In this document: piece after piece, positions 22,830 to 42,161 of the stretch
Layout: every line of letters starts with the position of its first letter
How positions within the stretch are numbered: position 1 is the stretch's first letter
Source: Escherichia phage Ec_YwIITB1
Reading direction: 5' to 3' (one strand)
Sequence record: PQ356294.1
Length of the DNA: 64,000 nucleotides
The notes under the pieces: generated by a model
The model's input: the letters and a program-made list of their open reading frames with translations, nothing else
Databases searched by the model: none
What the model was told of the DNA's origin: nothing
Program-made: the position numbers and the translations under genes

Positions 22830-22857
22830 TTTGTGTTCCTCCGTAGTTGATAGTTGT

Positions 22858-22887
22858 ATAGTACCACAGAGGAACAGTCTTGTAAAC
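22858..22887 (-). promoter_or_regulatory. early-type promoter module (GTTTAC -35, TACTAT -10, conserved 20-mer)
   Basis: One of three copies of agttgatagttgtatagtac, each 17-18 nt from a GTTTAC. Confidence 0.45.
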
Positions 22888-22889
22888 CA

Positions 22890-23204
22890 CTAAAAGAAAC
22901 TTCTTTCACAATTTTTTCCACTGAACCATGCACTTACCGCTTTCTTGGTCTCAGGAGCAGTGTTATCCATAAACCATTCAAAGGCAGCCTTTTTATGATT
23001 CTGGAGGGCTTCTCGGGCTTTAATCTGCTCACGGTCTATTAACACTAGCATGTGAGCCTTTCTTGTCACCATGGGCTTCTTATGATTTTTTGAATACTCC
23101 CAGTCATTTGTCCATCGCATTGTTGTTGCGAACTGAAATACTGCTTCTTTAATTTTAGTTTCGTAAATTTCACGAGCCTTTGAGTATAACATCATTACCT
23201 CCAT
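22890..23204 (-). CDS. hypothetical protein
   Basis: 104 aa ORF. Confidence 0.5.
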   Translation of the reverse strand: MEVMMLYSKAREIYETKIKEAVFQFATTMRWTNDWEYSKNHKKPMVTRKAHMLVLIDREQIKAREALQNHKKAAFEWFMDNTAPETKKAVSAWFSGKNCERSFF

Positions 23205-23293
23205 TCACCGGTTTAATTCTAGTCATCTTTTTAATGGCAGTCCATATAATCTATTTCTGAACTGCCTTTTTGTCATAGAAGTCCTCTTATGAA

Positions 23294-24262
23294 TTATTTC
23301 AGAAGAGTAACCTCAGCGATTTCTTCCCAACCGTTTTTGTCGGTCATAATAAAGTCAGCAAGATAAAGAGCAGTACGCAGTGAAACATTGCGCAAACGGT
23401 TAACATTAACTTTCATCCATGATAATGCTTTATAAGTTTCTTCATCAGAAAGACCGCGCTTTTGCATCATGTCAGTTGAAAGAATAACATCTTCAACCCT
23501 GACCATAATTTCTTCATTAGTGTGAACACCCAAATCCAAATAAACCGAGCGGGACACTAATGCTTGTAAGTGTGGAGCAAGTTTAGTACCACGGTCTAAT
23601 TCGCGGTCAATGTCAACGTTTGTGATAAAAACAATCGTTCCTTTAAATTCAAACTCACGCTCAATGCCTTTTTCTTCTAAGAAAGAAGATGCAGTGCTCC
23701 AGCAGACTTTACGGGTCTCTCCAGTGTCCAGAGCGGCTTTTAGAAGATTAAGAATATCCATATCAGAGAAAACATCCACATCATCAATCAAAAGGACAGA
23801 ATTCTCTTCACGATTATTCCAAAGCTGCTCATAAAGACCAATACCAGAGATTTTACCATTAATACTTTTATATTCAATGTATCCAATATCATTTGCTTTA
23901 TTCAAAGCTTTATCTAAAGAATACGTTTTACCAATACCTGCTGCGCCAGAGATAATCAATGAACGAATATTTCCATTAATAATACCATTCGTCATCATTC
24001 CCATAACATTAAATCTTTTATTAATGCGGGTTTTCATATCTTCATATGATTCTTTAACTTCTTCAACTTTTACACCATCATATGAAATATCTGATTTGTA
24101 AACCCAAACACCGCGGCGCTTACCGTCAATTTCAACAAAAACTTTACCATCTCCTTGTGCATCTACCGGAGCATTATCTGGGAACCATTCGCCTAAAAGC
24201 TCAAAAGTTCCAGAGATTTCTTTACCGAAGTAGATACCCTTATTGATAGTTACAGTTTTCAT
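23294..24262 (-). CDS. P-loop NTPase
   Basis: Walker A GAAGIGKT and Walker B LLIDDVD; start trimmed to ATG 24260-24262. Confidence 0.65.
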   Translation of the reverse strand: MKTVTINKGIYFGKEISGTFELLGEWFPDNAPVDAQGDGKVFVEIDGKRRGVWVYKSDISYDGVKVEEVKESYEDMKTRINKRFNVMGMMTNGIINGNIRSLIISGAAGIGKTYSLDKALNKANDIGYIEYKSINGKISGIGLYEQLWNNREENSVLLIDDVDVFSDMDILNLLKAALDTGETRKVCWSTASSFLEEKGIEREFEFKGTIVFITNVDIDRELDRGTKLAPHLQALVSRSVYLDLGVHTNEEIMVRVEDVILSTDMMQKRGLSDEETYKALSWMKVNVNRLRNVSLRTALYLADFIMTDKNGWEEIAEVTLLK

Positions 24263-24296
24263 TTTATTCCCCAAATCCGTATCAGTTGATAGTTGT

Positions 24297-24326
24297 ATAG
24301 TACAATAAAGCTTTATGCTTGTAAAC
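24297..24326 (-). promoter_or_regulatory. early-type promoter module (second copy of the conserved 20-mer)
   Basis: GTTTAC at 24321-24326; TACTAT at 24297-24302. Confidence 0.45.
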
Positions 24327-24344
24327 CGTTTTGCGAAAAATTTT

Positions 24345-24374
24345 TAAAATAAAAAAGGGAGCCCGAAGGCTCCC
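24345..24374 (-). terminator. intrinsic terminator (7 bp GC stem, UUCG loop, U run)
   Basis: gggagcc-cgaa-ggctccc followed on minus strand by UUUUUU; downstream of 24377..25390. Confidence 0.7.
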
Positions 24375-24376
24375 TA

Positions 24377-25390
24377 TCATTTATAATAACTTCGGTGGTT
24401 TTCAAGATAAACCCTCTCAAGGAAGTCATCCCAGAAACCCATGTCTACTTTTTGCTGCATACCGTTCTTAGAAGCTTCAATGGATGCTGCTTCTACTTGA
24501 TCGACCACATCTTCCAAAAACTCTTGAACAGTTTTAAATGGATGTTTACCCAACTTCACGTCGAGAATAAATGGAGCGTCTTGAAGTGGATAGACTAGGT
24601 CACCAGTTTTGTAAATTTCCAATAGTTGGAGTCCACCACGACAAGCATGACTCAGAGCTTTCCAGTCAATGCCCTCATTAGCTTCGGCCTTACGAGCGCG
24701 TTCGCCATATTCAGCATCTAATTTATTCAGTGACTGCTTAAGCTCAATAAGAGAAAGTGTTGTTTGATATTTACGACCCAACACGGTGTAGAACGTTTGT
24801 GGACCTGTTTTCTCATGATTATGGAATACCCATTCACAGAATTCGTTCTCTGGAAGACGATGCTTAATATCTTCAACTTTAGTTCGACGTTGCTTAATGG
24901 AACCGTCTTCTTGGTAATCAACCCATTGCTCAGGGATTTGATTAACTACTTTCAATACATCACGTAATGCGGCCAAACGAGAACCCTTAACACCATATTT
25001 AGAAGCTTGCTTGCGAACATATCCTAAATAGGATTTCATGTTAGTCGTATAAAAACGAGAACGATTGTCTTGAATAAACTTCCATACATCAGGCAAATCA
25101 GATTTAACTACCAGTTCAGGTGGAGTGTGGAGCATATCCAATGCTACAGTTTCACCATCTGCTGCTAATTTAAAGAAATACTTAAGACTGTATAGTTCAT
25201 GGTCAATATCATCTTTAGTGTTTTTAGATGATGTGCTGTTAGTGTTTTTACTCATATGCTCTTTAACATTTCCGATAAGAATATCACGAGCAGGAGGAAC
25301 AAAGATTTCTTTAAAATCTACATCAGATTCTGGAGTAGAAGTTCCATAAAGATGACTACCAAAATAGCTTTTCATTACTGTTTTCATCAT
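24377..25390 (-). CDS. Pol-beta-type nucleotidyltransferase-fold protein
   Basis: N-terminal GS-x9-SDVD motif (YFGSHLYGTSTPESDVDF) and a downstream hDh (VALDM). Confidence 0.6.
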   Translation of the reverse strand: MMKTVMKSYFGSHLYGTSTPESDVDFKEIFVPPARDILIGNVKEHMSKNTNSTSSKNTKDDIDHELYSLKYFFKLAADGETVALDMLHTPPELVVKSDLPDVWKFIQDNRSRFYTTNMKSYLGYVRKQASKYGVKGSRLAALRDVLKVVNQIPEQWVDYQEDGSIKQRRTKVEDIKHRLPENEFCEWVFHNHEKTGPQTFYTVLGRKYQTTLSLIELKQSLNKLDAEYGERARKAEANEGIDWKALSHACRGGLQLLEIYKTGDLVYPLQDAPFILDVKLGKHPFKTVQEFLEDVVDQVEAASIEASKNGMQQKVDMGFWDDFLERVYLENHRSYYK

Positions 25391-25848
25391 TCAGCCTTAT
25401 ATTCAATAACAGGACATACTTTAGCTTTACGCGCTTTTAAAAATTCGACGATAATAGATTTCTTGGGTTGAATAGGAGGTAAACCTTTATACGCTCTATC
25501 AATATTTTCTACATGTAAAGCATAATCCTTTTTCCATTTATAATCTTTATATTTTTCATGCAGTTGTGCAGGAATAACAAATGAACCAATAATAAGTAAA
25601 ACAAGCAAAATGGCAAGTATAAATGCTGATGGAATAAGAGTCCATAAACTACCAAAAATAAGCCATTTCTGTATGATTTCTGCGCAGATGATAGTTAGAC
25701 CTGCGAGCATAGTACATCCGAATAAAGAAACGAAAAATGTAGGGATAACAATAGACCAAAAATACGCGCACAGTGTCTTAGGTCGTTTCCATTCGTCGTT
25801 AAACATTTTGAATAATTTATAATGCCAAGAGTTTTCATTAATAACCAT
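25387..25848 (-). CDS. membrane protein
   Basis: Three hydrophobic segments. Confidence 0.6.
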   Translation of the reverse strand: MVINENSWHYKLFKMFNDEWKRPKTLCAYFWSIVIPTFFVSLFGCTMLAGLTIICAEIIQKWLIFGSLWTLIPSAFILAILLVLLIIGSFVIPAQLHEKYKDYKWKKDYALHVENIDRAYKGLPPIQPKKSIIVEFLKARKAKVCPVIEYKAE

Positions 25849-25850
25849 AA

Positions 25851-26372
25851 TTATCCTTTCATTGAAGGTGTAACAGTTGTTAAATACTTAATCATAGCTT
25901 CAGCTTCTGATTTTGATAATGAAATTTCTCCATTGTTTTGACGAATAGAAATAAAATCCGGATGACGGTCACCACCAGCTTTTAAAATACACATATAAGT
26001 ATCAGTTTCATCTTCAATATCTGAAATAATTGAAGCAGTTCCACATGAATGTGGTTTTTGATAAATCAATGCAGCTTTTCTTCCACCGTTTGACTGTTCA
26101 TAAACTTTTAACACATCAAACAAATCGCTTCTTTTATCAATAGCTAAGATGTTGTTTTCATCTTCAATATTAAATCCTTCGGATACTTCATAAAGTGTCA
26201 CCCATAAATCACCTATATCGATAGTAGCATTTCCTTTTCCACGACTTTCAAGAATATGACAAATTTTCTTGATTTCGTCATAACTCATTTTAATAATATC
26301 ATCTCCTTGAATAAGGAAGATGTCATTTTTAAATTCAACACGAATTAAACCACTTCCACTTGAAATAAACAT
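25851..26372 (-). CDS. hypothetical protein, tandem paralog A
   Basis: 173 aa; C-terminal region similar to 26379..26933. Confidence 0.6.
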   Translation of the reverse strand: MFISSGSGLIRVEFKNDIFLIQGDDIIKMSYDEIKKICHILESRGKGNATIDIGDLWVTLYEVSEGFNIEDENNILAIDKRSDLFDVLKVYEQSNGGRKAALIYQKPHSCGTASIISDIEDETDTYMCILKAGGDRHPDFISIRQNNGEISLSKSEAEAMIKYLTTVTPSMKG

Positions 26373-26378
26373 ATTTCC

Positions 26379-26933
26379 TCACTTTGAAATCATAGTTGGA
26401 ATGACAGAATCGAGATAAGTCTTTAGCGCAATAGCTTCGTCTTTGGTAAATGTGACAATATGCGATCGAAAATCATCAATTTGACGAATAGTTAAGACAT
26501 CACCATCTTCATAGCATTTTGATATGTTTAAAACAGTTTCATCATTCTGATTGCAAGCGTTAGTAATAATAGCATTGCAATTTTTGAGCCATTTTAAACT
26601 ATGTTTTCTTTCATTAGAATAATAAAAATATTTAATCTTATCTATAAAACTATCCCAATGAATAACTGATAGGCATATTGACTCACTTTTAATATTAAAT
26701 CCTGGGCATGAAGAATAAAAATGAATTTTGTGCTCATCATTGATGCTTACTATTTTATCAGTATAAGGATATTCAATTTGGGTTAAATGAATGATTTCAC
26801 TAGGCGTAAAATATAGCATATCGTCTTCTTGCGTCAAACGATACATATTATTTACTTTTTCTATAGCTAATTCACCAAAAAGCGGACTAACTTCTAATAC
26901 TAATCGTTTCATATTAATCCTTTTTATTGGCAT
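26379..26933 (-). CDS. hypothetical protein, tandem paralog B
   Basis: 184 aa. Confidence 0.6.
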   Translation of the reverse strand: MPIKRINMKRLVLEVSPLFGELAIEKVNNMYRLTQEDDMLYFTPSEIIHLTQIEYPYTDKIVSINDEHKIHFYSSCPGFNIKSESICLSVIHWDSFIDKIKYFYYSNERKHSLKWLKNCNAIITNACNQNDETVLNISKCYEDGDVLTIRQIDDFRSHIVTFTKDEAIALKTYLDSVIPTMISK

Positions 26934-27192
26934 GAATTTGTTTTAAAATTTTAGAGTATTCCTTTGTATCAGATTTACGTACAATCGATACACTATAAGG
27001 CATACTATCTGTGTCTTTTATAAAACGTTCCAAATGACACTCTAACAAAATTTCTGGATTATAAATCGTGTACATCAAATTACCTGTTGCTCCACGATAT
27101 TGGCAGATTTCTACTGATTGAGCATCATTCCACAATTTTGTTAAGACTAAATCACCTACTTCTAATTTCGGAAAGCTCACATTATTCACCAA
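26914..27192 (-). CDS. hypothetical protein
   Basis: 92 aa ORF. Confidence 0.5.
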   Translation of the reverse strand: MVNNVSFPKLEVGDLVLTKLWNDAQSVEICQYRGATGNLMYTIYNPEILLECHLERFIKDTDSMPYSVSIVRKSDTKEYSKILKQIHANKKD

Positions 27193-27367
27193 TTAAAGTT
27201 TCAATATAAGAATCAAGATTTACTTTAGCTTCTTCCATAAGAGTTTTGTATTTAATCTTGTTAGCATATCCAGAGAAAGCTGATTCATCAATAACTGTTG
27301 ATGTATGAACAGCTTTACTATACATCTCAATTAATTCTCTTAATTTAAAAGCCTGCTCACTTGTCAT
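27182..27367 (-). CDS. small acidic protein, family member 1
   Basis: 61 aa; shares N-terminal T/S-x-EQ..K and C-terminal Y-I/L-E motifs with five other small ORFs. Confidence 0.5.
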   Translation of the reverse strand: MTSEQAFKLRELIEMYSKAVHTSTVIDESAFSGYANKIKYKTLMEEAKVNLDSYIETLIGE

Positions 27368-27499
27368 TACATACTCCTTTGAATAATATCAATAATGTTG
27401 TTCACCAGATTATAAGTAAACATTGGATAATTATATTGAATCATCACATACACAACAAACAAAACTTTCATTCTCTTCTCCTTGACAGTTGACAAGATT

Positions 27500-27529
27500 A
27501 CTATACCATAACCTTGCCAACTTGTAAAC
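27500..27529 (-). promoter_or_regulatory. early-type promoter (GTTTAC, 18 nt, TATAGT)
   Basis: Hexamers with sigma70 spacing in the 27368-27531 gap. Confidence 0.4.
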
Positions 27530-27531
27530 CA

Positions 27532-27705
27532 TTAAATGACGTTTTCAATAAAATTCTGAAGCTTTGTGTGAGCATCAACCATGATTTTCATTTCTTCCTT
27601 TGCGAAAGCTGTACCTCTTTCCCGAGCAGAATACTCATAATCAGAAACTGCATTAGCATATTCTTCAATTAGCTTCATTAAAAACATCTGCTTTTCAGTT
27701 TTCAT
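27532..27705 (-). CDS. small acidic protein, family member 2 (absent from the ORF track)
   Basis: 57 aa ORF MKTEKQMFLMKLIEEYANAVS...; ATG overlaps the stop of 27695..27889. Confidence 0.45.
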   Translation of the reverse strand: MKTEKQMFLMKLIEEYANAVSDYEYSARERGTAFAKEEMKIMVDAHTKLQNFIENVI

Positions 27706-27889
27706 TATTCCACCTAATCATTTCAAGATATTGAACTAACTTAGCTTTGGATTTATCCAAATCCTTTTTAGCTGCTTCTATACCATCGTATGAATATCCT
27801 TCACAATGCTCAACTGCCAATTGGTATGAATCTATTTCAATATCACGTGCTAATTTAATGATTTTTTCAAACTGTTCACGTGTTAGCAT
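27695..27889 (-). CDS. small acidic protein, family member 3
   Basis: 64 aa ORF. Confidence 0.5.
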   Translation of the reverse strand: MLTREQFEKIIKLARDIEIDSYQLAVEHCEGYSYDGIEAAKKDLDKSKAKLVQYLEMIRWNNEN

Positions 27890-27891
27890 AC

Positions 27892-28131
27892 TTAAACTCT
27901 CGTATTATGATCGATAATTTCATCAAGAAACATATCTAAAGCTTCTACAGCATTATCAACTTTAGCTTCAAGTTCTTCAGCACCTTTATTTGCAATGCCC
28001 GACGAAAACCAAGCAAAGTCACTAAGTTCCTCATCTGCTTTGCGAATTAAAGCTACCAATTCTTTAATTTTATCTGCTTGTTCAATGCTAATCATTATTC
28101 CACCACATATGAAAGAGAGAATATTGCACAC
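27892..28131 (-). CDS. small acidic protein, family member 4
   Basis: 79 aa ORF; true start may be an internal Met. Confidence 0.5.
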
Positions 28132-28283
28132 GCCATATGAGTTGCAGCTTCATCACACATATCATAACGTTTCTTAAGAAGTTCTACAAGTTCTTCACTA
28201 GTAACTTCATCCATGTCGACGAAAAAATCACCATTAATGATGACGTAGATATTTCCTTCTTGATTGAGTGCTTCAATTTTCAT
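28095..28283 (-). CDS. small hypothetical protein
   Basis: Start trimmed to ATG 28281-28283 with GAGGAG RBS. Confidence 0.5.
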
Positions 28284-28347
28284 GATGTTCTCCTCTTTAT
28301 CCGATGGTTGTATAGTATCACAGCTCAAATTGAAAGTAAACCGGTAA

Positions 28348-28374
28348 AATGAAAAAAGTCTCCCGAAGGAGACT
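28348..28374 (-). terminator. intrinsic terminator (UUCG loop, U run)
   Basis: agtctcc-cgaa-ggagact followed on minus strand by UUUUU. Confidence 0.65.
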
Positions 28375-28378
28375 AATG

Positions 28379-28765
28379 TTATTCGAGTGAAAGAAGATAT
28401 TTGCTCTGGTAAAACATCCCAGTGATATCATCTATCGTGCTTTGAATGGCTGGAGGCATTTCTTTATAAATGCTGTTAGATTGATCTAGTATGTGATCAA
28501 TCATTTTAATTGTATCGGTAGGAAGTTTACTGGCGTCTGGAATAGAAGGCGTGTATTTTCTACCAGAATACCCTAAATATTGCTCACCAAATTTATCAAT
28601 CAAATCTGGCAATTCAGAGAAAATAAAATCGTATGCTTTGTGTCTAGCATAACTTTTAGTTTCAAAATGTGCAGAATGAAAATAAGCTTGTGCAGCCATT
28701 AATAAACCTAAGTATTCATCTGCCTTTGAAGGTTTTCCACTTTGTGAAAAGTCGCTGAATTTCAT
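28379..28765 (-). CDS. hypothetical protein (rI.-1 position)
   Basis: 128 aa, directly upstream of rI. Confidence 0.6.
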
Positions 28766-29055
28766 TCAGTCTCCAATTTAATGTTCATAATTCTAGCGTA
28801 TGATTGTGCCATCTCCGCGCCTCGCTCTATACATTCAAAATCGGAAGAGCACGGGTCATTTTTATAAGTCGTTCGCATAAAACTATAGAACTGTTCAGAT
28901 GATTCTACGCTTTTATTTTCAAAAAGCATATAAACGTGTCTAATACCAGATTCCATAAATTTATCAAAATGAAGATCGACATTCGCTTCAATTGGTGGAG
29001 ATAAAGCAAATGCTAATCCTAGCATGGCAAATAGTGCCGTTGCTTTTAAGGCCAT
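28762..29055 (-). CDS. rI: lysis inhibition regulator RI (membrane-anchored)
   Basis: 97 aa; N-terminal anchor MALKATALFAMLGLAF. Confidence 0.85.
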   Translation of the reverse strand: MALKATALFAMLGLAFALSPPIEANVDLHFDKFMESGIRHVYMLFENKSVESSEQFYSFMRTTYKNDPCSSDFECIERGAEMAQSYARIMNIKLETE

Positions 29056-29067
29056 AAAGGCCTCCTA

Positions 29068-29280
29068 TCATTTTTGTCCTGTATTTACTTTATGCCGATG
29101 CACGGCCTTAACTTTATCAAGGTATTTTTCAAAATTTCGCAATCTAGTATAGTCTGCCGGAGATTGGTTGAGTGATACTTCTCGACGCAAAGCTGAAATG
29201 ATATTTCCAACTTCCCTACGAATTTCATCTAATTGAAGAACAGTAAGATTGCGAAGTTGCTTTTCAGTTAATTGTAGCAT
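29068..29280 (-). CDS. hypothetical protein (rI.1 position)
   Basis: 70 aa ORF. Confidence 0.55.
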
Positions 29281-29322
29281 ATATACCCCTTTAGTTAGAT
29301 AAACCTATTTATAACTTTTGCA

Positions 29323-29904
29323 CTAACCAAGCTTTTTAGTTAATTCATTCCAATGTTTTCTACACAAAGAAACATAAATTTCATCACCAATACAGATTTG
29401 ATTACCTTCTTTAACTGGCGTTCCATCTTCCATTAATCGAGCTGTCATAATAGCTTTTTTACCACAATGACAAACTGCTTTTAGTTCAATAAGTTTATCT
29501 GCAATCGCCAAAAGTTCTTTAGAACCTTCAAATAATTTTCCAGCGAAATCAGTCCTTAGTCCATAAGCCATAACAGGAACATTATATGTATCGACAATTC
29601 GGCTTAATTGATGCACCTGTTCAGTTTTTAAAAACTGGGCTTCATCTACAAATACACAATGAATATCTTTTTGTGCTTCAGCCCATTTATAGAACTCAAA
29701 AATATCCATATCATCCGTAATAATATTCGCTTCCTGCTTAATTCCAATGCGAGAAACGACTTCACAGACAGAATCACGAGTATCAATAGCAGGCTTAAGA
29801 ACTAATACACCCATTCCGCGTTCTTTATAATTATGCGCAGCAGTCAAAAGAGAAGCAGATTTTCCAGCATTCATTGCTGCGTAAGTAAAAATTAAACTCG
29901 CCAT
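29323..29904 (-). CDS. tk: thymidine kinase
   Basis: 193 aa; P-loop NAGKS; C-terminal Zn-ribbon cysteines. Confidence 0.9.
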   Translation of the reverse strand: MASLIFTYAAMNAGKSASLLTAAHNYKERGMGVLVLKPAIDTRDSVCEVVSRIGIKQEANIITDDMDIFEFYKWAEAQKDIHCVFVDEAQFLKTEQVHQLSRIVDTYNVPVMAYGLRTDFAGKLFEGSKELLAIADKLIELKAVCHCGKKAIMTARLMEDGTPVKEGNQICIGDEIYVSLCRKHWNELTKKLG

Positions 29905-29905
29905 C

Positions 29906-30094
29906 TTAGTCCTTAGTTAAATTTTCTAAATATGTTTCTAAATCATTTTCAGCTTTATCGATAGATTTTACTAATTCGTAATATGTTTCGGCATCTCCGT
30001 ATTCAGAAGATATTTCAAAAGACAAATCCTTTTCTAAACTAATAATTTCACCAACTAAAAATAATATTTCGTTCTTTTGTTCGCGAGTAATCAT
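29906..30094 (-). CDS. small acidic protein, family member 5
   Basis: 62 aa ORF. Confidence 0.55.
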   Translation of the reverse strand: MITREQKNEILFLVGEIISLEKDLSFEISSEYGDAETYYELVKSIDKAENDLETYLENLTKD

Positions 30095-30276
30095 AAGGAA
30101 TTTATATAATTAATAAGTTCTTGTTCTTTATCGTCGAAATCTTTACACAGTTCTTCGTATTCGTCGGTATTAAAAGGACCGCATTCATCACAAACTTTTT
30201 CCAATTCGCTATTTTTATCCATAACTTCGTGAATAAGAGAAAATAGTCTGTCTTTTTGTTCTTTGCTTAGGCTCAC
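30091..30276 (-). CDS. small acidic protein, family member 6; apparent GTG start
   Basis: 61 aa; start codon at 30274-30276 is GTG overlapping the stop of an upstream 56-aa ORF. Confidence 0.5.
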   Translation of the reverse strand: MSLSKEQKDRLFSLIHEVMDKNSELEKVCDECGPFNTDEYEELCKDFDDKEQELINYINSL

Positions 30277-30279
30277 AGT

Positions 30280-30450
30280 ATGTCAATCCCCAAAAGTTTT
30301 AAAATGACTCGTTTCTGATTCATAACCGCTACGATTGAATGACCGTTGGGGTCTTTTTGACCTGATCCAATTATAAATCCTTTTTGTGCGGAAAGTTCAA
30401 TCAAAACATCAAGTTCACGTAATAATTGATATTTTAAATCATCGTTCATT
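30280..30450 (-). CDS. small hypothetical protein (absent from the ORF track)
   Basis: 56 aa ORF; ATG 30448-30450 with GAAGG RBS. Confidence 0.4.
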
Positions 30451-30673
30451 TTGGTTTACCTTCTTTAACGAAATCGGGATAAGGATAAAATCCTGAATAA
30501 AATCCTTCACCTTTATGATTGATACATCCTTTATTAGAACAATAGCACCAATAATCGAAATCACAAGCCATTTCATCATTACATAAAGCAAAAACAACTG
30601 GCCATTTACACTTTTCGCAGTGGGCATTTTTAAGAATACTAGTTTGGCTCATAACCATGTAACCTTTAAACAA
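30446..30673 (-). CDS. cysteine-rich small protein
   Basis: 75 aa with multiple Cys/His; preferred over the overlapping frame 30439..30627. Confidence 0.45.
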   Translation of the reverse strand: MFKGYMVMSQTSILKNAHCEKCKWPVVFALCNDEMACDFDYWCYCSNKGCINHKGEGFYSGFYPYPDFVKEGKPK

Positions 30674-30861
30674 TATTCTTCTACGTGCTGTTTACGACCT
30701 TTCTTATCAATAAAGGTATATTCAACGAATGTTCCAATATAGTCTTTATCTACACCATGCGGACTATTAATTGGACATTTAGTACGGCAAATGCGTTCCC
30801 ATTGACGAATAATTTCCACTTTGTTTTTAGGATCAAACGGATGCGGGTAATGTACTTTCAT
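30649..30861 (-). CDS. hypothetical protein
   Basis: 70 aa ORF. Confidence 0.5.
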   Translation of the reverse strand: MKVHYPHPFDPKNKVEIIRQWERICRTKCPINSPHGVDKDYIGTFVEYTFIDKKGRKQHVEEYCLKVTWL

Positions 30862-32188: not shown

Positions 32189-32195
32189 GCTTACC

Positions 32196-32657
32196 TCATT
32201 GAGTTTTAATTACTGCTTTAGAAGCCTTTCCTGGTAAACGACGACTGTTAATAATTGCCATCCTACATTGAAGTGACGGGTCTTTGAACTTCGCATTAGG
32301 TTTACAAACTGTAAATCCAAGCCAAAGATTTCCATCTGTGATTTCTAAACGTCCAGGACGGTATTCAACCCCATCAATAAAATCCTCATCAATGTCAGGA
32401 CGTGGAGGCATACTCAGGAATTCATTAACTTCTAAAACATGGTCTTTTATTTTGTGGAATAATTCAAAAACATATGTCTCATCAATCTCCCGTTGAATTG
32501 CACGATCAAGAAGATGCTGAGAATATTTTAGATGAAACGATGAGACCCCTGCTGCTTTTGATGCCTCACGAATCTCATTGTTAATTTGACGAAACTCCGA
32601 CTCAAAGTGACGACGAAGCTTATTTCGACGGATAAAAACTTCTGTGTTGATAGTCAT
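32196..32657 (-). CDS. regB: RegB endoribonuclease
   Basis: 153 aa, T4 RegB. Confidence 0.85.
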   Translation of the reverse strand: MTINTEVFIRRNKLRRHFESEFRQINNEIREASKAAGVSSFHLKYSQHLLDRAIQREIDETYVFELFHKIKDHVLEVNEFLSMPPRPDIDEDFIDGVEYRPGRLEITDGNLWLGFTVCKPNAKFKDPSLQCRMAIINSRRLPGKASKAVIKTQ

Positions 32658-32684
32658 GTTATTCTCCTCTTAACTGATAGAAAA

Positions 32685-32714
32685 ATTATACCACAGTCAA
32701 GAGGAAAAGTAAAC
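32685..32714 (-). promoter_or_regulatory. early promoter upstream of regB
   Basis: Minus strand GTTTAC at 32709-32714, TATAAT at 32685-32690. Confidence 0.55.
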
Positions 32715-32716
32715 AG

Positions 32717-33037
32717 TTATTCTTTAAATCTAATCAATTTATTCATAGACTTTGAAACTTCTGCACGGACCTCATGTAGGTTTTTAAGCTGTTCAAGACG
32801 TTGCTCATAGTAAGCAATTTCATCTTCTTCAAGACAGTCCTGTGAATCTTCTTTAAGATAACGTGCATAGTCCTGGAAAGCTTTACGGACTACTTCCTGG
32901 AAATCATCAAGACTTTGAATTTTCTTAGGAGCAACAGATACACGACGAGGGGCAGTATAATACTCATAACCAAACCCTGCGCTTAATTGAGCCATTAATA
33001 TTTTTCCTCTGGTTGGAACACAGCACGACAAGCCCAC
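32717..33037 (-). CDS. hypothetical protein
   Basis: 106 aa ORF. Confidence 0.5.
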
Positions 33038-33261
33038 ATACTAGCTTCTTTGAGTTTCGTTTTAGCAATAGTTAACTGATCTAGGCTTTCAGCATAATTC
33101 TTTGCGAATTCGTAGTCTTCACAATTATCTAGTGCTTCCCAAAATTCGTCATATAAAGCATCAAAGATAAGTCCTAAACGAACTTCAGCGTCTTTGATAG
33201 CATTCACTTTATCGATTTTCTCTTCAGTGTGCGGCTTATAACCTTTAATGTCTTCAATCAT
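32995..33261 (-). CDS. hypothetical protein
   Basis: 88 aa ORF. Confidence 0.5.
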
Positions 33262-33475
33262 ATTCTACTTCCTCGCCCGTTCCCAAATCATATTCAACTA
33301 AACGAATAGGTTCATGAATGCCATATCCCTGAACAGAAATTTCTGTCGTAGGATAAATTCCACTAATATCACCCATATTCCACGCTTCATTAAATTGCTG
33401 TTCGCCTGAATTACTAAACCATTCTGCGAAAGCATTTAACACATCTTCAGAACCTTCAATAATTATCTTTGCCAT
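33254..33475 (-). CDS. hypothetical acidic protein
   Basis: 73 aa ORF. Confidence 0.5.
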   Translation of the reverse strand: MAKIIIEGSEDVLNAFAEWFSNSGEQQFNEAWNMGDISGIYPTTEISVQGYGIHEPIRLVEYDLGTGEEVEYD

Positions 33476-33837
33476 TACAAGCTCTCAGTAAAGGTACGAG
33501 CGATAACATCGCGCTGCTGTTCCGGAGTCAGAGAGTTAAAGCGAACTGCATAACCGGATACACGGATGGTCAGCTGCGGATATTTTTCCGGATGCTTAAC
33601 TGCATCTTCCAGCGTTTCACGACGCAGAACGTTAACGTTCAAGTGCTGACCACCTTCAATTTTAACTGTAGGCTGTGATTCAATTTCAATTTCACGGGCG
33701 TGCAAACCGTAGAAAATTTCTGGGTCTACAAAAGAGTCCTCTTTAAAGGTTTTAGAAACAATAATTCGTGCTTGAATACCATCTTCAAAATAAATAGTAC
33801 CTTTATGTGTGCCTTCAAGAATTTGATATGCTTTCAT
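33475..33837 (-). CDS. autonomous glycyl radical cofactor (GrcA/YfiD-like)
   Basis: C-terminal RVSGYAVRF glycyl-radical signature, as in pyruvate formate-lyase C-terminus. Confidence 0.8.
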
Positions 33838-33843
33838 ATAACC

Positions 33844-34224
33844 TCAATTAGAAAATAAATTTATCCAAGATTGTTCTTTAATTAAAAATGGCTCAGAATC
33901 ATATGCCATTAAACTTTGGGTGATTAGTCCTTTAAAAGGCCCATCAATAAATTCCATGGTAAAATATGGAATTTTATTCATTAGTCGTGCATTAGGAGCA
34001 GTGCACAAAACTCTGCATCCTTTGAATACGCCTTTTTGTAATTTGTATTGCTTAGGATAAAATTCGCTCAAGACGTTGTTATTTGCCAAAATTTCAAAAT
34101 GATTCACCAATTTATTTTTAATAGTTTTTGGCGAAAAATAAAGATATTCGAAAAGCTGTGTGTCTGTCATCATTGCATTCCGATTACGAAAAACTGCGGA
34201 CGAGTAATACCACCAATGCAACAT
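33844..34224 (-). CDS. hypothetical protein
   Basis: 126 aa ORF; start likely an internal Met. Confidence 0.5.
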   Translation of the reverse strand: MLHWWYYSSAVFRNRNAMMTDTQLFEYLYFSPKTIKNKLVNHFEILANNNVLSEFYPKQYKLQKGVFKGCRVLCTAPNARLMNKIPYFTMEFIDGPFKGLITQSLMAYDSEPFLIKEQSWINLFSN

Positions 34225-34757
34225 TTAATATTACAGCAGTGTTGCACAGTTTCAATATGAATATCGTAAATTTTATCCATATCAGGAGATTTAACAGGCT
34301 CATCGATTATATACAAAATTCGCGAAAGAGATAAACCTCTGAACTTGCTTCCTTTATTACCGATAAAACTACGGACAGAATCAGTAAATAAGCGGAATCG
34401 AATATCATCGCTAGAATAACGAGAAAATTCTTTTTTAATGTGGTCCGCAGAAATTTTAGCGTAAGATGAAGTATTAGAAAGAACAATAACTGTTCCACCG
34501 TCATACAACCAATTAGCAGCAAAGTTAGTCACAGCAATTGATTTACCGGATTGACGTCCACCATCTAGTCGAAGTGTGCAGTATTCTTTAAATAAATGTG
34601 GCGGATCAGGTACATAAAATCTATTACAAATTTCTTCTACTCTAGCATCAGAATGGTGTGTAAAAGCATTCATCAGGGATAGATAAGGACCAGTTAAAAA
34701 TGTTCTCATTTTGTTATCTCTAAATTTGGGCCATTCCATGGCGCATGAATTTTCCAT
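34170..34757 (-). CDS. P-loop NTPase-like protein
   Basis: Walker A GGRQSGKS; Walker B-like LYIIDEP. Confidence 0.55.
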   Translation of the reverse strand: MENSCAMEWPKFRDNKMRTFLTGPYLSLMNAFTHHSDARVEEICNRFYVPDPPHLFKEYCTLRLDGGRQSGKSIAVTNFAANWLYDGGTVIVLSNTSSYAKISADHIKKEFSRYSSDDIRFRLFTDSVRSFIGNKGSKFRGLSLSRILYIIDEPVKSPDMDKIYDIHIETVQHCCNIKCCIGGITRPQFFVIGMQ

Positions 34758-34862
34758 TTCTGTATTTACCCATTACCGCGCTCAGGCTCGACCTTATTAC
34801 AGGTTGGCGGGAATCCCTCATAGAATCATGAGGTCCAGCTTGTTCCCATATTTCTTATTTGC

Positions 34863-35336
34863 TTATTTGAATGATTTGACGTACTGAATAGAGCCTTTGC
34901 TATTCACGAAAGCGATTTTACCATTTTTGTTATACATGGTAGCAGTACGCTGATAACCATAAGTTTGTTTACCAGATTGATAACCAACTAATGCGAAATT
35001 ATCTTCACCCATTTTATTCTGCTTAGCGCGGATACGTTCATGACCGTGTGCCATAAGAACCTTAGCGTCGCCAGTTGCAATGGATCTACGAGTTTTTTCA
35101 TCTTCAACTGTATTAACAAAATCGTCAAATGAATCAAATTTAGCATGAGATTTATTATACAGTTTTCCATCTACTGCATAATTATATCCCTGTACATCCA
35201 TCTCAACTTCTGTACCATCATCCAATACAGCAGTGATTTTTTGACCTTTTTTAAATTTCAAAAGATCAGTAAAAGATTCAGCGATAATTTGAGAATTAAT
35301 AGCTGCTTCAGTGATAAATTCTTGATATGTTTTCAT
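34863..35336 (-). CDS. internal-protein-like capsid-targeted protein
   Basis: N-terminus MKTYQEFITE-AA matches the T4 capsid targeting sequence. Confidence 0.6.
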   Translation of the reverse strand: MKTYQEFITEAAINSQIIAESFTDLLKFKKGQKITAVLDDGTEVEMDVQGYNYAVDGKLYNKSHAKFDSFDDFVNTVEDEKTRRSIATGDAKVLMAHGHERIRAKQNKMGEDNFALVGYQSGKQTYGYQRTATMYNKNGKIAFVNSKGSIQYVKSFK

Positions 35337-35345
35337 GTGTTTCCT

Positions 35346-35762
35346 TTAAATGTAAATAGTTTTACCGTAGTATTTATACCAGTATGGCTTCATTAAAATT
35401 TTTTCATAGAGTCGTTGTTGACTCAATTTAATAGCTGATTTGCATGGATTATAATCATTTTTCCATTCTGCTGGAATATCGCTGATGTCAGGAACTTCAG
35501 TATCTTTTATACTAAACCCACGTTTTAAGCATTCCATTATAATGTCTGATTGACGCTTTCGCAAAAATTCTAACTTATCGTAAAAGAACGTGACATGACC
35601 AGAACCTAAAATAAACTCGGAAGATATTTTAAAATCTTTAACCCGTTTACCATTTGCCACGTGTTTACGAACTATACCAAAAACACGTGGCAATTCACGG
35701 TATTCCGCAATTAAATGTTGGTCAGCAAGTTCAGATACTAAAGTCAAATTAATACGAGTCAT
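35346..35762 (-). CDS. denV: endonuclease V (pyrimidine dimer glycosylase)
   Basis: 138 aa, T4 DenV. Confidence 0.9.
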
Positions 35763-35821
35763 TTTATCTCTCCAAGTAACTGTGAATATACTATCGCAGT
35801 TTTAGGAGAAAATAAATAACT

Positions 35822-36352
<531 letters not shown>

Positions 36353-36808
36353 TTAAAAGAGGCTGTTCATTATTCGGTAAAGTGAAGGGCCCATCACATA
36401 TTGCCACTGAGTACGAGGAATAAGAGCAAAAGCATCCATCTCTGGAATCATAACGCCATCTTTATTTTCAAAATAAGACTCACAACAGCAATTTCTAAAC
36501 ATCTCATGCTCTACTGGAATCGTATAGTAAAATAACTGTAAGTCTTTATTACTAGAATATTTAAATACACCTAAGTCTTCTAGAAGGTCTGGATTATAAT
36601 TGCTAAAGCCAGTCTCTTCTAAGCATTCTCTTCGTGCTGCATCTAGCGCGCTTAAATCAGAATTTTCTACACGCCCCTTTGGAATATCCCAGCGATGTGC
36701 CATCATTCCATGCTTACGAGAACCAGTAACTCGTCCCATAAATAAATCTTTATCTTCTGTCATAAAGATAATACCAGCTGATAGTGTTTTCATTTTAATT
36801 TCCTGCAT
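36353..36808 (-). CDS. nudE: Nudix hydrolase
   Basis: Nudix box GRVENSDLSALDAARRECLEETG; start may be the second ATG at 36791-36793, which overlaps the upstream stop. Confidence 0.8.
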   Translation of the reverse strand: MQEIKMKTLSAGIIFMTEDKDLFMGRVTGSRKHGMMAHRWDIPKGRVENSDLSALDAARRECLEETGFSNYNPDLLEDLGVFKYSSNKDLQLFYYTIPVEHEMFRNCCCESYFENKDGVMIPEMDAFALIPRTQWQYVMGPSLYRIMNSLF

Positions 36809-37278
36809 TCAGTGATAAAATTATTTAAATTTTGAGCATATTTCTTTTCATCAAAAATCTTTTGTTGCCTGCGCATCCGCCATGGCATTTCAATGAACAT
36901 GTACCATATTCCTGATAATATTGATGCTGTAAAAATATTAACAAGTATGATTAAAAGAATCCAATCTTCCGTTCTGCCTACTGGACTTTCTATAAAAAAG
37001 CAAAATACAAATGATGACACAGGAAAACTAATGATATACCACAGAATCATAATCTTATCTGTGAACCATTCAGCATTCGTTAACTTAGCACGGCCATTAT
37101 GAATACACACGAATTTATCATCTGTTACAGTAGATGGCTTAACTGCTTGATATCCCATTCTAAACTCCCTAATTAATCGTTTCTTTGTATCTTCAGAACA
37201 GCCGCTCCAGTCAACTCTATCAACTGAAATGCCATCGTCCCCATCATCTAAATCATACCAGTGAGTTTTTAAAATCAT
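36790..37278 (-). CDS. membrane protein (tail ...ECRKLK)
   Basis: 162 aa; two TM helices; translationally coupled. Confidence 0.6.
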   Translation of the reverse strand: MILKTHWYDLDDGDDGISVDRVDWSGCSEDTKKRLIREFRMGYQAVKPSTVTDDKFVCIHNGRAKLTNAEWFTDKIMILWYIISFPVSSFVFCFFIESPVGRTEDWILLIILVNIFTASILSGIWYMFIEMPWRMRRQQKIFDEKKYAQNLNNFITECRKLK

Positions 37279-37592
37279 TTAATTTTCCTACAATCACTCA
37301 CAAACTCTTCCATTGATTCTTTTTCAATATAAGACATATAGCTATTATATTCCTTTAATTGTATTTTGTAATCCTTTTTTCTTTGCCAATTTATTTTAAA
37401 ATTATCATAATGAAAATATAACATGGTACCAAAGAATGAAAATAATGAAATCGCTATAGTATAATGAAGTTCACTCCAAACTTCTATTATATCTACTATA
37501 CCGCTGACGTTACTGCGGATGTTTAAAATAAAACAGTCAATTAACAATCCAATAAAAACTACCCGCAAGAGCTGCAGCCAATGCCACAGCAA
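37275..37592 (-). CDS. membrane protein (tail ...DCRKIK)
   Basis: 105 aa; two N-terminal TM helices; stop overlaps the next ATG. Confidence 0.6.
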   Translation of the reverse strand: MLWHWLQLLRVVFIGLLIDCFILNIRSNVSGIVDIIEVWSELHYTIAISLFSFFGTMLYFHYDNFKINWQRKKDYKIQLKEYNSYMSYIEKESMEEFVSDCRKIK

Positions 37593-37631
37593 AAATTGAA
37601 AATGACTCAGAAAAAGAATATTTGACTTTAT

Positions 37632-38045
37632 TTAGTTTTGGCTTTTGCATCGTGATTCCTTAACAAATTTCATAATTTCATCAAATTCATACATATCTAG
37701 CTTAAGCTGGTGTTCCTTTTTAATCTTTTTACACTGAGCTTTCCAATCACGTACGCGTTTACGATAATGTCTTCCTTGATACCAGTATCCTACCCAATTT
37801 ACAGGTACTAATAAAAGCGGAACTACCAATGGAAGAATTAGTGTTGCTCCAAATATTACACCAGATTCAATATCAGTCATAACGTCTATAACCATTCCAG
37901 CAATCACCAAAATCACAAATGATACAGCTACCACAGGACCTATTAACACATCAGTAGAAATTAGCTGACGCTTTGGTTCATACTTCACGGGTTTACTTGG
38001 AAGGTATAGTGATGGCTTTGACATATTCTCTACATTCCTTAACAA
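37632..38045 (-). CDS. membrane protein
   Basis: 137 aa; TM hairpin; basic C-terminal helix. Confidence 0.6.
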   Translation of the reverse strand: MLRNVENMSKPSLYLPSKPVKYEPKRQLISTDVLIGPVVAVSFVILVIAGMVIDVMTDIESGVIFGATLILPLVVPLLLVPVNWVGYWYQGRHYRKRVRDWKAQCKKIKKEHQLKLDMYEFDEIMKFVKESRCKSQN

Positions 38046-38601
38046 ATTTTTCTAATAATAAATCGCTTTCAAAATTGGGATTTTCTACGAATTTATCAAA
38101 AAGATCATCAACAATAGTTAAGATATTCTTTTTACTAAGAATACGCTTATTTTCATATTTTGTTTCAGAGTCAACTATAAGAGTAAAGAAATATTTCTTT
38201 CCCTGAAATTTTACCGTAGTATCAATATAAAATAAATTTGATTTTTGTAAATTACGTTTAAACCATGCATCACTTAAACTATAAACGCCAAGATAATCAT
38301 AATCGTCGTTTAAATAACAAACCGTCCATTCAGGAGAAATGAAATCAGTAAATTCAACATCAAAATCACATGTCAATGAATGAATTGATTCAATACTGTT
38401 AATGAGTATTCCAGGACGTATTAAAGACTTTTTACCTCTATAAAATCTTCCAGAAAGACTTTCATCAGTTTCATATGAAGACCCCCTATAGTAATTACGT
38501 CCTTCTGCCATACGTTTAAGAGCATTTAGTAATTGGTCTGGAACATCAACCTGTCTTTGGAACTCTTCAAACATTGAATTGAAATCACTTTGCATTTTCA
38601 T
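37993..38601 (-). CDS. hypothetical protein
   Basis: 202 aa ORF. Confidence 0.6.
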   Translation of the reverse strand: MKMQSDFNSMFEEFQRQVDVPDQLLNALKRMAEGRNYYRGSSYETDESLSGRFYRGKKSLIRPGILINSIESIHSLTCDFDVEFTDFISPEWTVCYLNDDYDYLGVYSLSDAWFKRNLQKSNLFYIDTTVKFQGKKYFFTLIVDSETKYENKRILSKKNILTIVDDLFDKFVENPNFESDLLLEKFVKECREYVKAITIPSK

Positions 38602-38619
38602 TCCTATTTACTCCAAGTA

Positions 38620-38639
38620 TAAGGGGCCGAAGCCCCTTA
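38620..38639 (-). other. UUCG-tetraloop hairpin
   Basis: taaggggc-cgaa-gcccctta in the intergenic region. Confidence 0.45.
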
Positions 38640-38642
38640 TCA

Positions 38643-39236
38643 TTATTTCAGAGAATTAATGTATTCCTGAACATCGGCAGAGGTAGTTTCAACCCCGGAA
38701 ATATTACCATTAAAGGTTTCAACTCGAGCAAGAGTATCTTCAATATCAACCTTAGTCAGCGCTGCAATTTCAACTACATCATCGGCAGTACTAATTCCAA
38801 GGGCATTTGCCGCACGAGTTTCACGGATATATTCCAATTTAACTGCAAGCTCTTGACGAGCATCATCTAACTCAACTACTTTCTTGGCGATTTCAATTCG
38901 CATTTCAGCATAACCGTCAGCTTTAGTAGTCAACTGCTCAGCTGTTCGACGATATAGCAAGCCGAGTTTAGCGTGCATTGTTACATCTTGACCTTCGGAA
39001 AGAAGTTTACGAATTTCACGCTCTTTTGATTCAGCCTGTCGATTCTTTTCGACAATAAGTTCACGAATACGTTTTTCTTCATTAATAGATTTAACAGAAG
39101 CAGTTTTTAGATCTTTAATTTTATCAAGCAGTTTTGCCGCCGCAGCAGTATACTGTTCTTCAACAGATAGATTTTTAGCCATAGCAGAACCAAGTTTAGT
39201 GCGAATAAACTCAACAATTTTCTTTAGTGTGTTCAT
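38643..39236 (-). CDS. coiled-coil protein (weak PspA/IM30-like resemblance)
   Basis: 197 aa, heptad-rich charged helices; family assignment speculative. Confidence 0.55.
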
Positions 39237-39278
39237 AGTATTTCCTTAGGTTGATTAAAAATAAAATCTGTGGAAGAA

Positions 39279-39824
39279 TTATATCATACTATTTAAGAGA
39301 TGTAAACTATTTTTAATTTTACAAATTCGTTCAGCTTCTTCAACGGCGGCGGCGATAATGCTTTTAGCTATAGGAGTACTAATACTAGTAGCTTTTACAC
39401 TTAACACGATTTCTTTATCTTTACTAGGCCAACCCCATGATTTTTCACCATGAGTGCCTTTAATTACAGCAGACACCTCAAGTGAGCATCCACTGTCACA
39501 TGTTTTTACATTAACAACCCAAGGGTCACTTTTCTCAACCGATTTCTCAGCCGGTTTATCCCAGTAAATATTAAGAATACGTGGGACATCAAATTTAGCA
39601 GGGCAAATCTTAACTGTAAGACCTTCGCTTTCTAGCCAATTAATAAGAGGGCGTTCATACATGCGGCGATGTGGGCTTTGGACTCGACAAGCCTTGTGCC
39701 CATTGCTTGCGGCTTCACTAAGCTGTTCTAATACCTGTTTTTGCATTATTGATAAGATATCATCAAAAGATTTTTCGGAAGTTTCATTCAGTTCGGTATA
39801 AAGAGACATAGCGGTTTTCCTCAA
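39279..39824 (-). CDS. hypothetical protein
   Basis: 181 aa ORF. Confidence 0.6.
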   Translation of the reverse strand: MRKTAMSLYTELNETSEKSFDDILSIMQKQVLEQLSEAASNGHKACRVQSPHRRMYERPLINWLESEGLTVKICPAKFDVPRILNIYWDKPAEKSVEKSDPWVVNVKTCDSGCSLEVSAVIKGTHGEKSWGWPSKDKEIVLSVKATSISTPIAKSIIAAAVEEAERICKIKNSLHLLNSMI

Positions 39825-39865
39825 ATTGTAGGCTCATAATATCTCAATCATGAGCCTGTGTAAAC

Positions 39866-40129
39866 TTATTTCATATTATTGAAATATTCTTCTGCGATTT
39901 CGTCGTTATCGTGGTAAACTTTAGAAGACAGTTTAACATAACCTTCTGCTGTAAACATATTAATCACAACTTTTACAGTATACCACTGACCATCTTCATT
40001 ACCCATTACTGCGTAAGTTTCAAACATCGGATGATCAGGACCGATAACTTTAATATCATTCACTGTACGACCGAAATCTTCTGAAACGCATTTCATAAAG
40101 AAGTTGAACAGTTCGCCGTAATTATCCAT
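39866..40129 (-). CDS. hypothetical protein
   Basis: Start trimmed to ATG 40127-40129 with GGAGAA RBS. Confidence 0.55.
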   Translation of the reverse strand: MDNYGELFNFFMKCVSEDFGRTVNDIKVIGPDHPMFETYAVMGNEDGQWYTVKVVINMFTAEGYVKLSSKVYHDNDEIAEEYFNNMK

Positions 40130-40172
40130 TTCATTCTCCAAGTTGTTTTCTATATCAGTAGTTGATAGTTGT

Positions 40173-40202
40173 ATAGTACCATGGAAGAACAGAGATGTAA
40201 AC
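40173..40202 (-). promoter_or_regulatory. early-type promoter module (third copy of the conserved 20-mer)
   Basis: GTTTAC at 40197-40202; TACTAT at 40173-40178. Confidence 0.45.
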
Positions 40203-40351: not shown

Positions 40352-40359
40352 ATTTAAAA

Positions 40360-41041: not shown

Positions 41042-41048
41042 AAGAATG

Positions 41049-42157: not shown

Positions 42158-42161
42158 AATT

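Follow-up and report, generated by a model that had tools for sequence, protein, structure and literature searches.

An identical 20-mer upstream of three early-region genes of a T4-like coliphage is very probably the core of T4-type early promoters

The early promoters of bacteriophage T4 are reportedly treated in Liebig & Ruger 1989, Wilkens & Ruger 1994 and Miller et al. 2003. They carry GTTTAC at positions -36 to -31 (PMC1524935) and combine an UP element, -35, TGn and -10 with 'additional regions of consensus' (Hinton 2010 review, PMC2988021); for the T4/PST pair, the early-promoter consensus has been given as TTTACW-N17-TAYWAT (PMC4122927). Here, we describe a 20-mer that occurs in identical form upstream of three early-region genes in a 64,000-nucleotide stretch of Escherichia phage Ec_YwIITB1 (sequence record PQ356294.1), hereafter the window, and compare it with these promoters as well as with other described systems in which such elements take part.

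One such system is the PeSL cassette, a composite of terminator hairpin, A/T-rich stretch, early promoter and Shine-Dalgarno (SD) sequence with ATG, repeated in hyperplastic regions that show indels and swaps of open reading frames (ORFs). PeSL-mediated shuffling was described initially in RB49/phi1, where mini-circles were obtained by experiment (Arbiol et al. 2010, PMC2839356); a later study added the T4/PST pair (Comeau et al. 2014, PMC4122927), and the process has been tied to T4 deletion endpoints and to older findings at internal-protein loci (PMC4122927, PMC2839356). Among these older findings are conserved blocks of promoter and translation signals on either side of internal-protein loci that are polymorphic in T-even phages (Repoila et al. 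1994, summarized in PMC2839356 and PMC4122927). At the RNA level, GGAGAAUAAAA is an 11-nt site needed for efficient cleavage by T4 RegB with ribosomal protein S1 (PMC1702504, PMC3014915). Lastly, the T4 genes e, soc, 49 and I-TevI each have a late promoter located inside a hairpin that sequesters the SD, which is freed in the proximal transcripts (PMC3014915).

By megablast, the window belongs to Tequatrovirus: matches at 95-99% identity to genomes of T4-like coliphages and Shigella phages number in the hundreds, and the corresponding part of T4 is 38.7-88 kb, with an identity of 91-97%. The plus-strand sequence AGTTGATAGTTGTATAGTAC has exactly three matches in it (Table 1); read on the minus strand the repeat is GTACTATACAACTATCAACT, and all three copies have the layout GTTTAC-N17-GTACTATACAACTATCAACT. 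Allowing up to three mismatches added no further match in the window, and none of 100 dinucleotide shuffles of the window contained any match to the 20-mer; the repetition is far beyond chance. GC skew is negative through ~47 kb and the ORFs of that part lie on the minus strand, each copy being located 15-30 nt upstream of the SD and ATG of a co-oriented minus-strand ORF. An earlier note on this DNA had proposed three identical copies, each behind a GTTTAC -35 element and ahead of an early gene, plus two related copies. The number and identity of the copies hold, with the second and third coordinates each one base off; the -35 element is present with a spacing of 17 nt in every case, and the three genes are orthologs of T4 nrdC.8, nrdC.10 and e.8. 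Both related copies are real but more diverged, with five mismatches each, and lie at slightly different positions (Table 1).

We are highly confident in identifying the 20-mer as the core shared by a subfamily of T4-type early (Pe) promoters. All three copies have GTTTAC at -36 to -31 and TTTACA-N17-TACTAT, which fits the T4/PST consensus and the TAnnnT form of the -10. The extended -10 reads TGG in copies 1 and 3, whereas copy 2 has TTG in the window and TGG in T4, and an A/T-rich UP element precedes each -35 (GAAAGAAGTTTCTTTTAGTG, AAAAATTTTTCGCAAAACG and AAAACTTTTTTTCACAAAACG in copies 1, 2 and 3, respectively). The arrangement is strongly strand biased: GTTTAC-N18-TAnnnT is found 14 times on the minus strand of the window versus twice on the plus strand, and in the whole T4 genome 38 times versus 0, where base composition predicts ~2 per strand. 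The 20-mer is also present, unchanged, at the orthologous T4 sites before nrdC.8, nrdC.10 and e.8. Compared with the T4 class, nothing essential differs. In the public record OL960581.1, the sites orthologous to copies 1 and 2 are already labelled 'similar to phage T4 early promoter GTTTAC(N14)gtggTAttaT (Miller et al. 2003)' and are preceded by terminators. The T4 records NC_000866 and AF158101 have no promoter features, the sole exception being one note that names Pe133295. A MotA-box middle promoter at copy 2 was also considered and rejected by eye, since just 3 nt separate the GCTTTA of the spacer from the -10 where 11-13 nt would be expected.

We used this Pe133295 to calibrate a start-site rule, which puts +1 seven bases past the last base of the -10 hexamer. 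It places +1 at the A of ATCAACT in all three copies (T4 equivalents 53907, 55348 and 70660), such that the 20-mer spans -13 to +7 and only seven of its bases are transcribed. Orthology, consensus and conservation together suggest that transcription would initiate at these positions. The element is real and, judging from these features, probably functional as a promoter, but of an already described kind: it re-identifies, in a T4 relative, catalogued T4 early promoters in PeSL-like form.

In T4 itself, the exact 20-mer has six copies, upstream of nrdC.8, nrdC.10 and e.8 plus imm.1, motA and ndd.6, and near-copies precede cef, frd.3, denV, mobD.5 and trna.4. Among 33 T4 Pe promoters, it is the sole core that occurs more than once. 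A 79-nt version of the module occurs at 3690 places in 543 phage records, typically 5-9 per genome; nearly all of these are Tequatrovirus, yet RB69 (Mosigvirus) carries it too and has the exact 20-mer at e.8, in another genus.

How far do the conserved positions coincide with polymerase contacts? Across the 33 T4 early promoters, information peaks at the A-rich -40s, the -35, T-15/G-14 (88% and 91%, respectively) and the -10, and a weaker class-wide consensus, tAtcaa, covers -1 to +5. We also aligned the nrdC.8 promoters of ten phages in which NrdC.8 shares 68-99% identity with the window protein. Here, the UP/-35 region, the TG, the -10 and CTATCAACTAC (-2 to +9) are invariant, while the spacer and positions -6 to -3 vary. 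Such conservation is what selection on the start region and on contacts with polymerase would produce, and would not be expected of a recently duplicated neutral repeat. The A/T-rich region and -35 of copy 1 overlap the end of the nrdC.9 ortholog (stop 22890-22892).

Alignment of the T4 and window copies extends the repeat to a module of ~100 nt around the 20-mer, in the order AAAAATTTTTTCACAAAAC(G/T)GTTTACA, a variable spacer of ~15 nt, then TGGTACTATACAACTATCAACTACTGATAC(G/A)G...TTGGAGAATAAAATG. The nrdC.10, motA and frd.3 modules open with a G+C-rich terminator hairpin and T-run. Copies 2 and 3 belong to this longer module, sharing UP, -35, variable spacer, core and leader up to the SD and AUG; copy 1 resembles the others only over the -35 and the core plus the next few bases, and has nothing in common with copies 2 and 3 past +9. 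The family-consensus leader end, GGAGAAUAAAA, doubles as SD and RegB/S1 site. The RegB/S1 target is a single-stranded GGAGRAYARAA located where translation of early mRNAs initiates (Durand et al. 2006, PMC1702504). Like it, the leaders of T4 nrdC.10, e.8 and ndd.6 have GGAGAATAAAATG at their end; window copy 3 has GGAGAATGAAATG, and its GGAGAATGAAA agrees with the consensus at 10 of 11 positions. Unlike a property of the repeat itself, the motif lies outside the 20-mer, and it is imperfect elsewhere in the window: copy 1 has the partial match GGAGGAACACA, and copy 2 reads GGGGAATAAAA, while the T4 site is perfect. Relative to T4, copy 2 carries two point changes, both in functional motifs, namely TGG to TTG (24304) and GGAG to GGGG (24267-24270); by the latter, the GGA triplet needed by RegB is lost from the SD. 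The copy-2 promoter of the Shigella phage vB_SsoM_113 has GGGG as in the window and retains TGG.

Taken together, we propose that host sigma-70 RNA polymerase, in its unmodified form and as soon as infection begins, would use these Pe promoters on the minus strand, through a -35 TTTACA (within GTTTAC), a 17-bp spacer, TGn plus TACTAT and an A/C-rich discriminator, ACAACT, with the start at the A of ATCAACT. The promoters would drive the nrdC.8, nrdC.10 and e.8 orthologs. A few minutes later, the mRNAs may be turned off through the family-consensus SD, presumably by RegB cleavage at the same site. The copies would be identical because paralogs have been spread and homogenised by recombination and because purifying selection acts on the polymerase contacts. 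As a by-product, the dispersed direct repeats could serve the T4 recombination system as short homologies at which cassettes are inserted, lost or swapped, in line with the PeSL model.

The last of these steps bears on another suggestion of the earlier note, a recombination hotspot that moves gene cassettes, and a comparison of flanking gene content in relatives supports it through insertions, ORF swaps and mosaic promoters. One example is given by vB_SsoM_113 (L026 2465-3057), which has a two-ORF cassette between nrdC.11 and nrdC.10, directly behind the copy-2 module. The module is kept whole, with its terminator, promoter, leader and first codons ATGAAAACT, and then continues into the two extra ORFs; nrdC.10 has acquired another early promoter, whose subtype is TACTAT-TACCCT, and each of the two junctions ends in ...GGAGAATAAAATGAAAACT. 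Three more top matches (H5, H12 and H17) cover a stretch that is ~480-620 bp longer than the query. In relatives from IMG/VR, ndd.6-type and imm.1-type modules with the same upstream context and spacer drive different ORFs, and one (L020) has an nrdC.8-type core with leader at another locus. In addition, IMG/VR 2974787500_000001 (L031) shows five clustered changes that turn its nrdC.8 core into TATTAT-TACCCT, in a region that is 99% identical apart from these, and the T4 ndd.4 promoter (start 166771) is a mosaic of imm.1-type spacer, trna.4-type core and nrdC.8-type leader; to judge from their sequences, each resembles the outcome of patchy gene conversion among promoter paralogs. A seemingly chimeric nrdC.8 promoter in phage ECp13 proved to be a BLAST extension artefact.

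Two gene replacements relative to T4 are likewise bracketed by early promoters. T4 e.7 is replaced in the window (39253-39814) by an unrelated 176-aa ORF, phrog_6869, between promoters starting at 39865 and 39307, and T4 ipI (43967-44224) by another internal head protein, phrog_3499, between promoters starting at 44284 and 43954. The promoter at 44284 is paralogous to the trna.4-type promoter at 43954, such that the pair brackets the swapped internal-protein gene. This arrangement resembles the homologous early-promoter blocks around swapped genes in the summarized accounts of the T-even internal-protein loci, with the difference that those blocks are of the TACTAT-TACC subtype and not the exact 20-mer. 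Globally, 4 of 28 synteny edges versus T4 fall inside Pe modules, which cover 4.1% of the region (P = 0.026). As for the PeSL cassettes themselves, window copy 2 is the full terminator-plus-promoter form and the T4/PST consensus fits all three copies; differences are that copy 1 has just a weak upstream 5-bp A/T stem (AAAGA-AGTT-TCTTT), that the nearest hairpin to copy 3 (40351-40333) is ~130 nt upstream, and that mini-circles have been shown for RB49/phi1 only, not for T4-type modules. That recombination acts at the modules in this phage is what the rearrangements suggest, and the idea has already been published as PeSL-mediated modular shuffling.

Several observations weigh against this overall interpretation. 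In the accessible literature, we found neither transcript 5′ ends for the three sites nor a dataset of T4 transcription starts, and the starts given here derive from spacing. The -10 TACTAT deviates from TATAAT at two positions, window copy 2 has lost the TGn as well as the RegB-site GGAG, and a generic sigma-70 scan fails to set the sites apart (35 found versus 34.8 expected). Known sigma-70 contacts also do not obviously account for the conservation from +3 to +9. On the recombination side, the breakpoint enrichment is modest and comes from one genome pair, and for copies 1 and 2, which lie 1,439 bp from each other, a simulated deletion junction (query coverage of at least 80%) was found in 0 of 614 matching records.

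The alternative that survives best, although we consider it unlikely, is that the repeat owes its retention chiefly to recombination, as a mobile-cassette boundary of PeSL type possibly with mini-circle intermediates, and that promoter activity is secondary. It would account for the cassette insertion exactly at the copy-2 module of vB_SsoM_113, the same module before different ORFs in relatives and once at a new locus, the mosaic promoters, the e.7 and ipI replacements each between two early promoters, and the breakpoint enrichment, and it has a published model with mini-circles in RB49/phi1 (PMC2839356) and its extension to T4/PST (PMC4122927). However, a pure homology substrate would not keep the -35, TG, -10 and start region invariant while the spacer varies freely. 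All copies are also co-oriented with the early genes, with a 38:0 bias in T4. The natural copy 1-copy 2 deletion was not seen in the records searched, and the indel beside copy 3, a 1.2-kb insertion, is edged by duplicated terminators rather than promoter copies, which counts against the recombination idea.

Less probable is that a phage factor, acting in early-promoter shut-off or in the promoter-specific stimulation by Alt-modified polymerase, has the start-site block as its target on the DNA, as opposed to plain sigma-70 recognition. Early-promoter shut-off is unexplained and Alt stimulation is independent of -35, TGn and -10 (reviews PMC2988021, PMC3014915), and the block is conserved beyond sigma-70 needs. 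Yet its positions are just 60-76% conserved across the 33 T4 early promoters, all of which are shut off, no factor is known, and paralogy with gene conversion accounts for the identity of the copies without one. The least probable alternative, which was also proposed in the earlier note as a shared regulatory RNA element, is that the stretch downstream of the -10 encodes a cis-regulatory 5′ untranslated region element (a structure, or a site for a small RNA or protein) co-regulating the three mRNAs: CTATCAACTAC does not vary among diverged orthologs, most of the leader is common to copies 2 and 3 and their T4 paralogs, and the shared GGAGAAUAAAA is a genuine RNA-level signal as RegB/S1 site (PMC1702504), but such a structured RNA is not supported, with just 7 nt of the 20-mer in the transcript, no similarity of copy 1 to copies 2 and 3 past +9, leaders from +1 that fold no better than shuffles (minimum free energy 0, -3.2 and -0.6 kcal/mol for copies 1, 2 and 3; z of +0.7, -0.4 and +1.0), an Rfam search of the window with tRNA matches only and none at the leaders, and a 5′-terminal AUCA/UGAU hairpin, rejected as a candidate, of merely -0.6 kcal/mol and missing from copies 1 and 2. 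The sole RNA-level signal common to the leaders is the SD/RegB site.

Table 1. Positions of the three repeat copies, their promoter elements and genes, the related copies and the hairpin promoters; coordinates refer to the window unless T4 is named.
Feature	Position	Strand	Description
Copy 1, 20-mer core	22845-22864	minus	core of nrdC.8-ortholog early promoter; spans -13 to +7
Copy 1, -10, discriminator and start	22863-22858; 22857-22852; 22851	minus	-10 TACTAT (TGG before); discriminator ACAACT; predicted +1 A
Copy 1, -35 and A/T-rich upstream region	22882-22915	minus	-35 GTTTAC 22887-22882; invariant in 10 orthologs
Copy 1, spacer/leader hairpin	22876-22834	minus	in read-through RNA, before ATG 22829-22827; arms UGUUCCUCUGUGGU (22876-22863) and ACUACGGAGGAACA (22847-22834)
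nrdC.8 ortholog	22302-22829	minus	gene behind copy 1; ATG 22829-22827; 175 aa, unknown function
Copy 2, 20-mer core	24284-24303	minus	core of nrdC.10-ortholog early promoter; -10 24302-24297; predicted +1 A 24290
Copy 2, terminator, UP and -35	24375-24350; 24326-24321	minus	terminator hairpin AGGGAGCCTTCGGGCTCCCT (24375-24356) with T-run; A/T-rich UP; -35 GTTTAC
Copy 2, leader	24260-24283	minus	GATACGGATTTGGGGAATAAAATG; T4 equivalent has GGAGAATAAAA (RegB/S1 consensus), window GGGG
nrdC.10 ortholog	23294-24262	minus	gene behind copy 2; ATG 24262; 322 aa, unknown function
Copy 3, 20-mer core	40160-40179	minus	core of e.8-ortholog early promoter; -10 40178-40173 (TGG before); predicted +1 A 40166
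Copy 3, UP region and -35	40197-40232	minus	UP AAAACTTTTTTTCACAAAACG; -35 GTTTAC 40202-40197
Copy 3, leader	40127-40159	minus	ACTGATATAGAAAACAACTTGGAGAATGAAATG; contains GGAGAATGAAA; ATG 40129-40127
e.8 ortholog	39866-40129	minus	gene behind copy 3; ATG 40129; 87 aa, unknown function
Related copy, mobD.5-ortholog promoter	28299-28318	minus	ATACTATACAACCATCGGAT; 5 mismatches; -35 28341-28336; terminator hairpin 28374-28357
Related copy, trna.4-ortholog promoter	43912-43931	minus	ATACTATTACCCTATCAACT; 5 mismatches; -35 43954-43949
Hairpin promoters, window	22876-22834; ~32708-32660; ~27523-27487; 44274-44245; ~39862-39828	minus	first: nrdC.8; second: regB ortholog
Hairpin promoters, T4 (starts)	7179; 8182; 20576; 57954; 62761; 65763; 73903; 123057; 133295; 136300; 166771

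Many early promoters have an inverted repeat that brackets the -10, its 5′ arm in the -35/-10 spacer and its 3′ arm in the leader, often over the SD. Copy 1 is such a case: in read-through RNA, its spacer arm would pair with the leader and cover the SD GGAGG, with a stability of -22.5 kcal/mol (z = -5.6) that 0 of 200 shuffles reached, while RNA started at its own promoter is unstructured. Copies 2 and 3 have no spacer/leader hairpin. For the 33 T4 Pe promoters, duplexes between a spacer and its own leader average -11.9 kcal/mol versus -7.3 for non-cognate pairs, a mean reached in 0 of 50,000 permutations, and 12 of the 33 lie below the non-cognate 5th percentile; a 19-promoter set gave the same result. 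In diverged nrdC.8 orthologs, another spacer arm, CTCCAGTAG, pairs with a changed SD region, CTACTGGAG. Replication in RB69 (1-50 kb) yielded nine strict candidates and a weak signal (P = 0.03). About one-third of T4 early promoters, copy 1 included, lie inside a hairpin that pairs the spacer with the leader/SD region (Table 1).

Tentatively, these promoters might be built as gates, with the -35/-10 spacer as an anti-Shine-Dalgarno arm: read-through RNA would hide the SD and RegB GGAG in a hairpin that has the -10 and start region for its loop, while RNA from the own promoter would leave the SD open, CTATCAACTAC being part of this design and not of sigma-70 recognition; we regard this as a possibility, short of an even chance. 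The parallel with T4 transcript-specific translation is that the copy 1 spacer pairs with the SD region and that the SD is open only in RNA from the proximal promoter. Unlike copy 1, which is early, the described cases are late promoters, and copies 2 and 3 are without a hairpin. In the accessible literature, which excludes the older T4 papers, we found no description of SD-gating hairpins as a class feature of early promoters. At one of the T4 hairpin promoters, a GenBank note to NC_000866 states that the 14-nt stretch 133300-133313 (L025 5300-5313) was earlier reported as its inverted complement. The stretch corresponds to the loop of the Pe133295 hairpin, which contains the -10 and is flanked by the 7-bp inverted repeat GGTAGAG/CTCTACC, and the discrepancy may be a hairpin sequencing artefact or a real flip.

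The window differs from T4 in gene content at several other places. The 1.2-kb insertion upstream of copy 3 has the rnaC terminator on one side and the e.8 promoter on the other, and holds two minus-strand ORFs (40360-40923 and 41049-41522). These are paralogous, of 187 and 157 aa, both phrog_2280 and of unknown function, and start with MKTYAEFL and MKSYAQFLNEA, which we take to resemble the T-even internal-protein leader motif. Each follows a copy of one terminator hairpin (41600-41577 and 41041-41018), the upstream one being followed by TATAAATA, which is late-promoter-like. The surrounding region, 39000-41500, is covered to at least 80% in only 28 of 660 matching phage records.

Further along the window, the denV-ipII-ipIII segment is largely missing or replaced at 34851-35766: T4 64942-65066 is without a counterpart, 65066-65359 has just 78% identity, and 65359-66445 is absent. 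At 41920-42913, Rfam finds ten tRNA genes (one marginal, at 30.3 bits) versus eight annotated in T4, and the segB homing endonuclease gene that interrupts the T4 tRNA cluster is absent. The T4 mobC, I-TevII (with the nrdD intron), mobD and segC segments have no counterpart at 13199-13219, 14495-14498, 25391-26354 and 50545-50550, respectively, mobD being replaced by two other ORFs (25387-25848 and 25851-26372).

The significance of the repeat itself is very small, as it consists of known promoters plus a published idea on recombination points in hyperplastic regions. For the annotation of this phage, it provides three likely start sites, with copy 2 carrying weakening point changes in TGn and the RegB site. 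If the early promoters do act as gates, each shuffled early cassette would carry its own control of transcription, translation and decay, and a coupling of start choice with translation and RegB sensitivity would extend past the few late-promoter cases to many early genes. The observation of embedded hairpins could matter, modestly, for how T4-like phages keep shuffled genes correctly expressed.

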